Assembly (NCBI RefSeq): GCF_057098645.1
Contig: NZ_CM169472.1
Length of the DNA stretch: 64,000 nucleotides
Reading direction: 5' to 3' (one strand)
Below are positions 32,001 to 34,075 of the stretch, piece by piece. Made by a program: the position numbers and the translations under genes. Position 1 is the stretch's first letter. Every line of letters begins with the position of its first letter. The notes beneath the pieces were generated by a model, which was not told the origin of the DNA, ran no database searches, and saw nothing but the letters and a program-made list of their open reading frames with translations.

Positions 32001-32417
32001 TTAATCAATAAACAAGGCGGGAGAAATGCCGAATCGCGTTGCCAATTTTTTAGCGTGTTCCAGCGTTAATTTCCTCTTCCCGCTCAAAACGCGTGACACC
32101 ATAGATTTACTGCCAATTTCCGGCAGATCGGAAAGGGTTAAACCATATTGATCCATAAGGGTACGAATCACGGCTATACCGCCAGGCATGGCTTGAGCCA
32201 TGGCATTAAATTCCGCAAATTCGGGCGCTGATTCTTCCCACGCGGTTATTTTGGCACACACCAGATCCAGTAAGGGGTTTTCAGGATCGTTGAGCAGCAA
32301 ATGATCTACCAGTTCCAGCGCCTGGGTGTATTGTTCCTCGTTCTGAATACCCGCCAGAAAAGGTGCCACAGCAGTTAGCTTTTCTCCTGCTTGCAAGATG
32401 TCGGCAATCGCAATCAT
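32001..32417 (-). CDS. higA: HigA antitoxin (HTH-XRE family)
   Basis: 138-aa ORF with C-terminal HTH; overlaps the 3' end of the higB remnant by 4 nt. Confidence 0.85.
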   Translation of the reverse strand: MIAIADILQAGEKLTAVAPFLAGIQNEEQYTQALELVDHLLLNDPENPLLDLVCAKITAWEESAPEFAEFNAMAQAMPGGIAVIRTLMDQYGLTLSDLPEIGSKSMVSRVLSGKRKLTLEHAKKLATRFGISPALFID

Positions 32418-32664
32418 TTTTTCCCCTTAGTACGATGAACAGCGGTAAAGAAATCGTATTCTTTATGCGTCATAACTTCACGTATGTAGCACTTTTGCGA
32501 TTCAAAAAAGACCATTGCTACAACACGTAATTCATTGCCCCCAACATTGAAAACATAATGCTTATCCAGATATTTGAAGTTATCCAGAGATGGGAATACT
32601 GCTTTTAATGACTCAGGTTTTTTGAAATATCCCTTAGCAATCGTGTTCCCTAGTGGATTTGCCC

Positions 32665-33570
32665 CTATATTTCCAGACATCTGTTATCACTTAACCCATT
32701 ACAAGCCCGCTGCCGCAGATATTCCCGTGGCGAGCGATAACCCAGCGCACTATGCGGATGCCATTCGTTATAATGCTCGAACGCCTCTGCAAGGTTCTTT
32801 GCTGCCGTTAACCCGTCTGGTTTGGGCATGATACTGATGTAGTCACGCTTTATCGTTTTCACGAAGCTCTCTGCTATTCCGTTACTCTCCGGACTCCGCA
32901 CCGCCGTGTTCTTCGGTTCAAGTCCCAACATCCGGGCGAACTGGCGTGTTTCATTAGCCCGGTAGCATGAACCATTATCCGTCAGCCACTCCACTGGAGA
33001 CGACGGAAGATCGTTGCCGAAGCGGCGTTCCACCGCTCCCAGCATGACGTCCTGTACTGTTTCACTGTTGAAGCCGCCGGTAGTCACCGCCCAGTGCAGT
33101 GCCTCACGATCACAGCAGTCCAGCGCGAACGTGACACGCAGTCTCTCTCCGTTATCACAGCAGAACTCGAACCCGTCAGAGCACCATCGCTGATTGCTTT
33201 CTTTCACGGCCACTCTGCCTGTATGTGCCCGTTTCGATGGCGGTACAGCAGGTTTTCGCTCAAGCAACAGCGCATTCTGGCGCATGATCCGGTAAACACG
33301 TTTGGCATTGATCGCAGGCATACCATCAAGTTCTGCCTGTCTGCGAAGCAGCGCCCATACCCGACGATAACCATACGTGGGCAGCTCTCCGATAACATGG
33401 TGTATACGGAGAAGCACATCCGTATCATCAGTGTGACGACTGCGGCGGCCATCCATCCAGTCATCGGTTCGTCTGAGAATGACGTGCAACTGCGCACGCG
33501 ACACCCGGAGACAACGGCTGACTAAGCTTACTCCCCATCCCCGGGCAATAAGGGCGCGTGCGCTATCCAC
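32665..33570 (-). CDS. insD: IS2 OrfB transposase (InsD, DDE integrase domain)
   Basis: 301-aa ORF in -1 frame relative to insC; A6G slippery heptamer at 33570-33577 in the overlap. Confidence 0.85.
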
Positions 33571-33893
33571 TTTTTTGCCCGTCCATATTCAACGGCTTCT
33601 TTGAGGAGTTCATTTTCCATCGTTTTCTTGCCGAGCAGGCGCTGGAGTTCTTTAATCTGCTTCATGGCGGCAGCAAGTTCAGAGGCAGGAACAACCTGTT
33701 CTCCGGCGGCCACAGCAGTAAGACTTCCTTCCTGGTATTGCTTACGCCAGAGAAATAACTGGCTGGCTGCTACACCATGTTGCCGGGCAACGAGGGAGAC
33801 CGTCATCCCCGGTTCAAAGCTCTGCTGAACAATTGCGATCTTTTCCTGTGTGGTACGCCGTCTGCGTTTCTCCGGCCCTAAGACATCAATCAT
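33528..33893 (-). CDS. insC: IS2 OrfA (InsC)
   Basis: [41 protein letters not shown]...; ORF-track 33528..33938 includes an upstream extension. Confidence 0.85.
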
Positions 33894-34075
33894 CTGTTCT
33901 CCAATGACTAGTCTAAAAACTAGTATTAAGACTATCACTTATTTAAGTGATACTGGTTGTCTGGAGATTCAGGGGGCCAGTCTACCTAGAGCCACCAACT
34001 CCGTTTTATGTTGCGGGTATTTTTCCGCAGCATCTTTCAATGCTTTTTGAGTTATCAGGTGCATTCTTCATCACG

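Follow-up and report, generated by a model that had tools for sequence, protein, structure and literature searches.

In Escherichia coli, a single promoter for the toxin-antitoxin pair higB-higA has been mapped upstream of higB, and this promoter is autoregulated by HigA (Christensen-Dalsgaard et al., PMC2814082). The HigB toxin folds in the order alpha1-3, beta1-3, alpha4, and toxicity of the Salmonella homologue SehA needs Y53, D61, and the stretch from H88 to Y98 (bioRxiv 10.1101/2024.07.09.602740). At the fadH-rlmG locus of E. coli, orphan higA has been reported for CFT073 and NRG857c (PMC7232551).

The insertion sequence IS2 is bounded by a right inverted repeat (IRR) of 41 bp from TGGATTTGCCCC and a left inverted repeat (IRL) of 42 bp from TAGACTGGCCCCC (PMC3299598). 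An outward-facing -35 hexamer is present in its right end and requires a -10 hexamer exactly 17 nt away (PMC3299598; PMC9330008). According to the spacing rule for such fusion promoters, 16 nt of IRR and 1 further nt precede the -10 hexamer (PMC3299598).

In this study, we analysed a 64-kb stretch of DNA, hereafter the window, in which these two systems meet. We consider it very likely that the account as a whole holds, namely an IS2 insertion in higB, carried by a sub-lineage of the O145:H28 clone, as one more case in which the toxin has been lost and the antitoxin ORF kept.

Results

An IS2 element splits higB

The window contains one IS2 copy. Its features, with the slippery site and the target duplications read from the sequence, are as follows.

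32654-33984, minus strand: complete IS2 of 1331 bp, oriented like higB-higA and reading IRL, insC, insD, IRR on the minus strand
33943-33984, minus strand: left inverted repeat IRL, 42 bp, with the element's own weak promoter (length and promoter per PMC3299598)
32654-32694, minus strand: right inverted repeat IRR, 41 bp (length per PMC3299598)
33528-33893, minus strand: insC (orfA, IS2 repressor TnpA), 121 aa, equal to MG1655 InsC1; NCBIfam NF006928
32665-33570, minus strand: insD (orfB, catalytic part of the transposase), 301 aa, equal to MG1655 InsD1; NCBIfam NF006918
33570-33576, minus strand: A6G slippery site, at which the -1 frameshift giving the OrfAB transposase occurs
32649-32653, no strand: target-site duplication CCTAG, IRR-side copy
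33985-33989, no strand: target-site duplication CCTAG, IRL-side copy

On the plus strand the element starts at 32654 with TGGATTTGCCCC, the IRR end, and it ends at 33984 with GGGGGCCAGTCTA, the reverse complement of the IRL start TAGACTGGCCCCC. Compared with the annotated IS2A of MG1655, it is of equal length and mismatched at 4 of 1331 nt, and the InsC and InsD translations are unchanged. The NCBIfam profiles 'IS2 transposase TnpB' (NF006918) and 'IS2 repressor TnpA' (NF006928) matched at 727.6 bits (cut-off 597) and 275.8 bits (cut-off 229), respectively. As expected of IS2, a member of the IS3 family, orfA and orfB lie in the 0 and -1 frames with the A6G motif, and a 5-bp direct duplication, CCTAG, is present on both sides. 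With its ORFs and ends intact, this copy looks transpositionally competent. At window position 33953 (IS2 position 32, inside IRL), an A of MG1655 IS2A is replaced by G; this region also holds the element's promoter.

The two parts of higB on either side of IS2, and the ORFs that now run across the junctions, are as follows.

33985-34064, minus strand: higB 5' fragment, codons 1-27 (ORF list and translation)
33969-34064, minus strand: 31-aa ORF, made up of the higB 5' piece, four IS2 codons, and a stop (ORF list)
32414-32653, minus strand: higB 3' fragment, with the duplicated L26-G27 codons, N28-K104, and the stop (collinear with O145 higB up to 32653)
32414-32680, minus strand: chimeric 88-aa ORF, nine codons of the IS2 right end followed by HigB residues 26-104 (ORF list)

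The break lies after the second base of codon 27, and 1336 bp split the gene. Translation of the 5' piece gives M1-G27 and then RLAP followed by a stop inside IS2. In the genome as it stands, higB has no uninterrupted frame and is a pseudogene. Removal of IS2 and one CCTAG copy in silico gave a continuous 104-aa ORF, which is 100% identical over its full length to K-12 HigB in PDB entries 5IFG and 6KML and to UniRef HIGB_ECOLI. Furthermore, the empty site of 1265 bp was found at 100.0% identity, as an ungapped single piece, in over 20 complete genomes from the O145:H28 lineage, a match that cannot be due to chance. The restored HigB and the perfect match of the empty site together establish that the boundaries of IS2 and the target duplication are exact. 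PF09907, the Pfam family of HigB, is on record for the higB remnant. An NCBIfam scan of HigB and HigA returned no family at E<=0.001, and the identity of both proteins was taken from PDB, RefSeq annotation, and Pfam records.

An earlier, sequence-only reading of this DNA had described a complete, CCTAG-flanked IS2 of 1331 bp at 32654-33984 that splits higB, and every one of these coordinates is right. Its prediction that excision restores the higB frame was borne out by the 104-aa ORF of 5IFG, with no failure of reconstitution, and both IS2 ends and the target duplication lie where they had been read. Its statement that higB is intact in MG1655 also agrees with what we found, since the higB-higA pair is seen there between fadH and rlmG. 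Nothing contradicts the insertion itself, which is hereby confirmed. In mechanistic terms, IS2 would have entered codon 27 of higB (ygjN) by its normal copy-out-paste-in route, duplicating CCTAG.

The genome background is of O145:H28 type

The flanks of the insertion share 97.2-97.4% identity with MG1655, whereas E. coli O145 strain RM9872 matches all 64 kb of the window collinearly at 99.95-99.99% identity, and the source is therefore an O145:H28-type strain. With a 25-kb query, 26 complete genomes of the O145:H28 clone matched at ~100% identity, and the next-best genome at 99.1%. A K-12 origin is ruled out by 97.2-97.4% identity to MG1655 against ~99.96% to RM9872, so that the K-12 derivative envisaged as the source in the sequence-only reading has to be abandoned. 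Structurally, the window was seen to depart from the O145:H28 clone at two places only: higB, with its IS2, and yhaH, which has lost 48 bp in frame.

As for the latter, yhaH (encoding a DUF805 membrane protein; window 52251-52272) is missing 48 bp, or 16 codons in frame, relative to O145 RM9872. The 48 bp are apparently present in the 26 closest complete O145:H28-lineage genomes, as judged from two-piece alignments. The deletion is flanked by two copies of CGTGGTGGGCA, a direct repeat of 11 bp, and this suggests slippage or a microhomology deletion. Compared with MG1655, the window also has ~1.7 kb extra in the ygjK-fadH intergenic region (27842-29779). In O145 RM9872, a hypothetical protein of 514 aa (WP_000258466.1) is encoded there, for which Pfam records show no hit.

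Distribution of the insertion

The IS2-higB junction was found in none of the 5,426 complete RefSeq E. coli genomes, and the 26 closest complete genomes all have an intact higB. The single full-length match among the complete genomes, in strain SCU-105, was rejected as the same insertion, being another IS2-like element at another site. The exact 88-aa chimera, used as a read-out of the junction, is encoded on at least 24 contigs from at least five GenBank draft assemblies and several SRA-derived assemblies. Among the GenBank assemblies with the junction are GCA_053263075.1, GCA_032290865.1, GCA_053268055.1, GCA_048062455.1, and GCA_029361185.1. Nine of the ten junction loci that were fetched show 0-3 mismatches to the window over ~3.3 kb, and three show none over ~3.4 kb. 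For the IRL-side junction in other assemblies, the 31-aa N-terminal ORF was without a record, such short ORFs being rarely called. The presence of the junction on at least 24 contigs means that the insertion marks a sub-lineage with many sequenced isolates, and the description of the event as strain-specific in the sequence-only reading was too narrow, given that the very same junction recurs on these draft and SRA contigs. The insertion would accordingly sit in a sub-lineage of O145:H28 E. coli.

Fate of the toxin

The 5' piece of higB would end after 31 codons, and the 3' piece would be translatable only as the chimera. No Shine-Dalgarno sequence can be recognised ahead of the chimera start, where the DNA reads GTGATAACAG-ATG, and the chimeric product would be without the N-terminal 25 residues of HigB, which form part of the alpha1-3 helical layer. 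Since the 5' piece stops at 31 codons, and since the chimera has neither these helical-layer residues nor a ribosome-binding site, full-length HigB can presumably no longer be made, and the module appears to be functionally toxin-null. In SehA, a homologue with 40% identity, every residue required for toxicity falls within the portion still encoded by the chimera. For this reason, loss of toxin activity is likely rather than proven, and residual activity is possible judging from sequence alone. The exact 88-aa protein is already present in GenBank under the name 'HigB family toxin' (e.g. MDT8478214.1).

higA and its expression

32001-32417, minus strand: higA antitoxin gene, intact, 138 aa; its ATG overlaps the higB stop (ATGA) (ORF list)
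34096-34123, minus strand: higBA promoter (TTGCCA, 16-nt spacer, TG-TATCAT), with 10 of 12 consensus matches in the scan; inverted-repeat operator region

The claim of the sequence-only reading that higA is intact holds, as the 138-aa ORF is uninterrupted. Over the higA stretch there is 100% identity to the gene annotated as higA (WP_000560266.1) in O145 RM9872, and Pfam HTH_3 is on record for the protein, which is a full-length HigA of the HTH_3 / XRE type. The higBA promoter is also intact and now reads into IS2 in sense orientation, with 1.3 kb of IS2 between it and higA, so that co-transcription of toxin and antitoxin from one promoter immediately upstream is no longer found. A scan of the minus strand over the interval between IS2 and higA predicted no sigma-70-like promoter and no intrinsic terminator. 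A fusion promoter at the right end of IS2 was considered and rejected, as the -10 position reads TAGGGA (read by eye) and the scan of the minus strand was empty.

Consequently, higA would be cut off from direct contact with its only mapped promoter, and would be transcribed only by read-through across the 1.3-kb IS2, either from the higBA promoter or from the weak promoter of IS2. Most of this read-through stretch is orfB, which would be exposed to Rho because it is translated only after a rare frameshift. HigA output is probably reduced, because higA would depend on read-through over a long and mostly untranslated stretch; this is the weakest link of the account. As HigA represses the higBA promoter, partial compensation by derepression of this promoter is to be expected. 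The neighbouring genes, rlmG upstream and fadH convergent, should be unaffected.

Loss of higB across E. coli

Among the 5,426 complete genomes, higA is present in 4,376 and covers at least 80% of its length in 4,371. Any match to higB was found in 4,281 genomes, of which 2,822 have at least 80% of its length and 1,459 less than 80%. Thus, about a third of the E. coli that carry the locus are already without higB by other routes. One such form is a 321-bp deletion allele, found in ~1,400 of the 5,426 complete genomes, in which only the last 78 bp of higB are left; the figure is derived from the 1,459 genomes just mentioned, 20 of 21 sampled partial rows having this same 78-bp remnant. The deletion extends from 84 bp upstream of the higB start to higB nt 237, taking with it promoter and operator as well as 237 bp from the start of the gene. 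It is the allele behind the orphan higA published for CFT073 and NRG857c (PMC7232551). In E. coli UMB200201_11 (positions 1453-1501 of the fetched locus), which carries it, full-length higA lies directly downstream of rlmG.

Other losses of higB are of several kinds. Strain M1/5 has an internal higB deletion. In E. coli SCU-105 (NZ_CP051738.1), higB contains an IS2-like element that is 95.7% identical to the IS2 of the window; it measures 1333 bp including the duplication (fetched locus 3217-4549) and lies after higB codon 72, equivalent to window positions ~32513-32517. In GCA_003464755.1 (fetched locus 910-1220), IS5, with an InsH-type transposase (Pfam DUF772), has entered higB at nt 91, giving a 97-aa chimeric ORF and leaving higA intact. 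Three draft assemblies carry three different higB nonsense mutations, K15*, Q18*, and K10*, and for all of these alleles gene callers give the same 82-aa 'HigB' starting from an internal codon. Furthermore, particular positions within higB recur as the ends of many draft contigs, and these breaks probably mark further IS insertions. The suggestion of the sequence-only reading that IS inactivation is a route of toxin-antitoxin decay is in keeping with these observations, since this locus often loses its toxin while keeping the antitoxin (genome counts; PMC7232551).

Discussion

Repeats are a classic cause of misassembly, and IS2 is multicopy: a query made of the IS2-containing 2-kb locus matched at a median of 5 places per genome. 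It might thus be asked whether an IS2 copy from elsewhere has been misplaced into higB by the assembly. We regard the probability of this as negligible, since a misplaced copy is at odds with a perfect 5-bp target duplication and with an exact natural allele on excision, and since independent draft assemblies carry the same higB-IRR junction: five draft contigs from GenBank continue for 97-163 bp into the right end of IS2 before they break, which they do because short-read assemblies break at repeats such as IS2. Granted that the insertion is real, the module might still be an altered but working toxin-antitoxin pair, if the chimera of IS2 codons and HigB residues 26-104 were translated and had some mRNA-interferase or other activity. 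Its ORF is open and in frame, and the ATGA overlap with higA is preserved at its end; the residues critical in SehA are within the retained part, and gene callers label it as a HigB family toxin. Against this, the lack of a Shine-Dalgarno sequence ahead of the ATG, the loss of the N-terminal 25 residues of the alpha1-3 layer from a single-domain fold of only 104 residues, and the many other higB-null alleles, which suggest that the toxin is dispensable, make such a working pair very improbable.

The level of HigA is where the sequence-only reading and ours part. In the former, the module is toxin-null but can still produce antitoxin. Spelled out, this would mean HigA in functional, autoregulated amounts, through read-through from the derepressed higBA promoter or from IS2, acting as an orphan antitoxin and repressor. 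This is a serious possibility, albeit one to which we give somewhat less than even weight. Read-through would be helped by the sense orientation of IS2 and by the lack of a predicted intrinsic terminator on the minus strand, higA retains a strong Shine-Dalgarno sequence of its own (AAGGGG, spaced 6 nt from the ATG), and a low level of HigA would itself raise read-through, HigA being the repressor of the higBA promoter (PMC2814082). Moreover, higA is full length in 99.9% of the carrier genomes, even where higB and the promoter are deleted. On the other hand, the sole mapped promoter is upstream of higB (PMC2814082), and no fusion promoter is predicted at the IS2 right end, where the -10 required by the spacing rule (PMC3299598) reads TAGGGA by eye. 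The ~860 nt of largely untranslated orfB and the 250 nt of higB remnant ahead of higA would favour Rho-dependent polarity. Insertion sequences are well known to exert Rho-dependent polarity over untranslated stretches. We therefore keep to a toxin-null module in which HigA output is probably lowered.

Taken on its own, a toxin-null higB here is of little significance, being the textbook disruption of a well-known toxin-antitoxin module by a well-known IS. It is an already-known kind of event with two well-characterised components, and its chimeric protein is already in GenBank. The event is also ordinary because about a third of the locus-carrying E. coli have lost the toxin by other routes. 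The insertion of IS2 would be a further route to the toxin-null state, and one that is reversible in principle. Its use lies in two directions. The IS2-higB junction can serve as a lineage marker, which sets a sub-lineage of the Shiga-toxin-associated O145:H28 clone apart from the 26 closest complete genomes. In addition, the insertion counts as a further independent case within a clear species-wide imbalance, with higA full length in 4,371 genomes and higB in 2,822, and this imbalance could be a starting point for asking whether selection retains orphan antitoxins.

A bolder interpretation would be that the recurrent, unrelated knockouts of higB, together with a full-length higA in nearly all carriers, reflect selection against the toxin and for orphan HigA rather than neutral decay. 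We consider this unlikely, if worth stating. Were it true, orphan HigA would be retained as a regulator or as anti-addiction immunity. As a local corollary, IS2 activity in this sub-lineage might become tied to stress, since the transposase genes of IS2 now sit directly behind a stress-inducible promoter that HigA represses.

Comparison with known systems

The element itself is closest to MG1655 IS2A, which lies in yaiX of K-12 and likewise interrupts a host gene. The two share the length of 1331 bp, 1327 of 1331 nt, InsC, InsD, the A6G site, and a 5-bp duplication; they differ in target gene, in host lineage, and by one substitution in IRL (IS position 32). The promoter-creating IS2 insertions at ampC and acrEF involve the same element, whose right end carries the outward -35 (PMC9330008; PMC3299598). 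Unlike those insertions, the flank here has no -10 at the 17-nt spacing, and the effect is disruption rather than activation.

With respect to the target, SCU-105 is the nearest parallel, with an IS2-type element in the same gene, in the same orientation, and with higA intact. It is nevertheless an independent event, as its element lies 136 bp further into higB and in a host background that is 95% identical. The orphan higA of CFT073, NRG857c, and UMB200201_11 represents the same outcome at the same locus, that is, no functional higB and a full-length higA. In contrast to the 321-bp deletion allele, which is irreversible, all of the higB and promoter sequence is kept here, and precise excision of the IS would restore higB.
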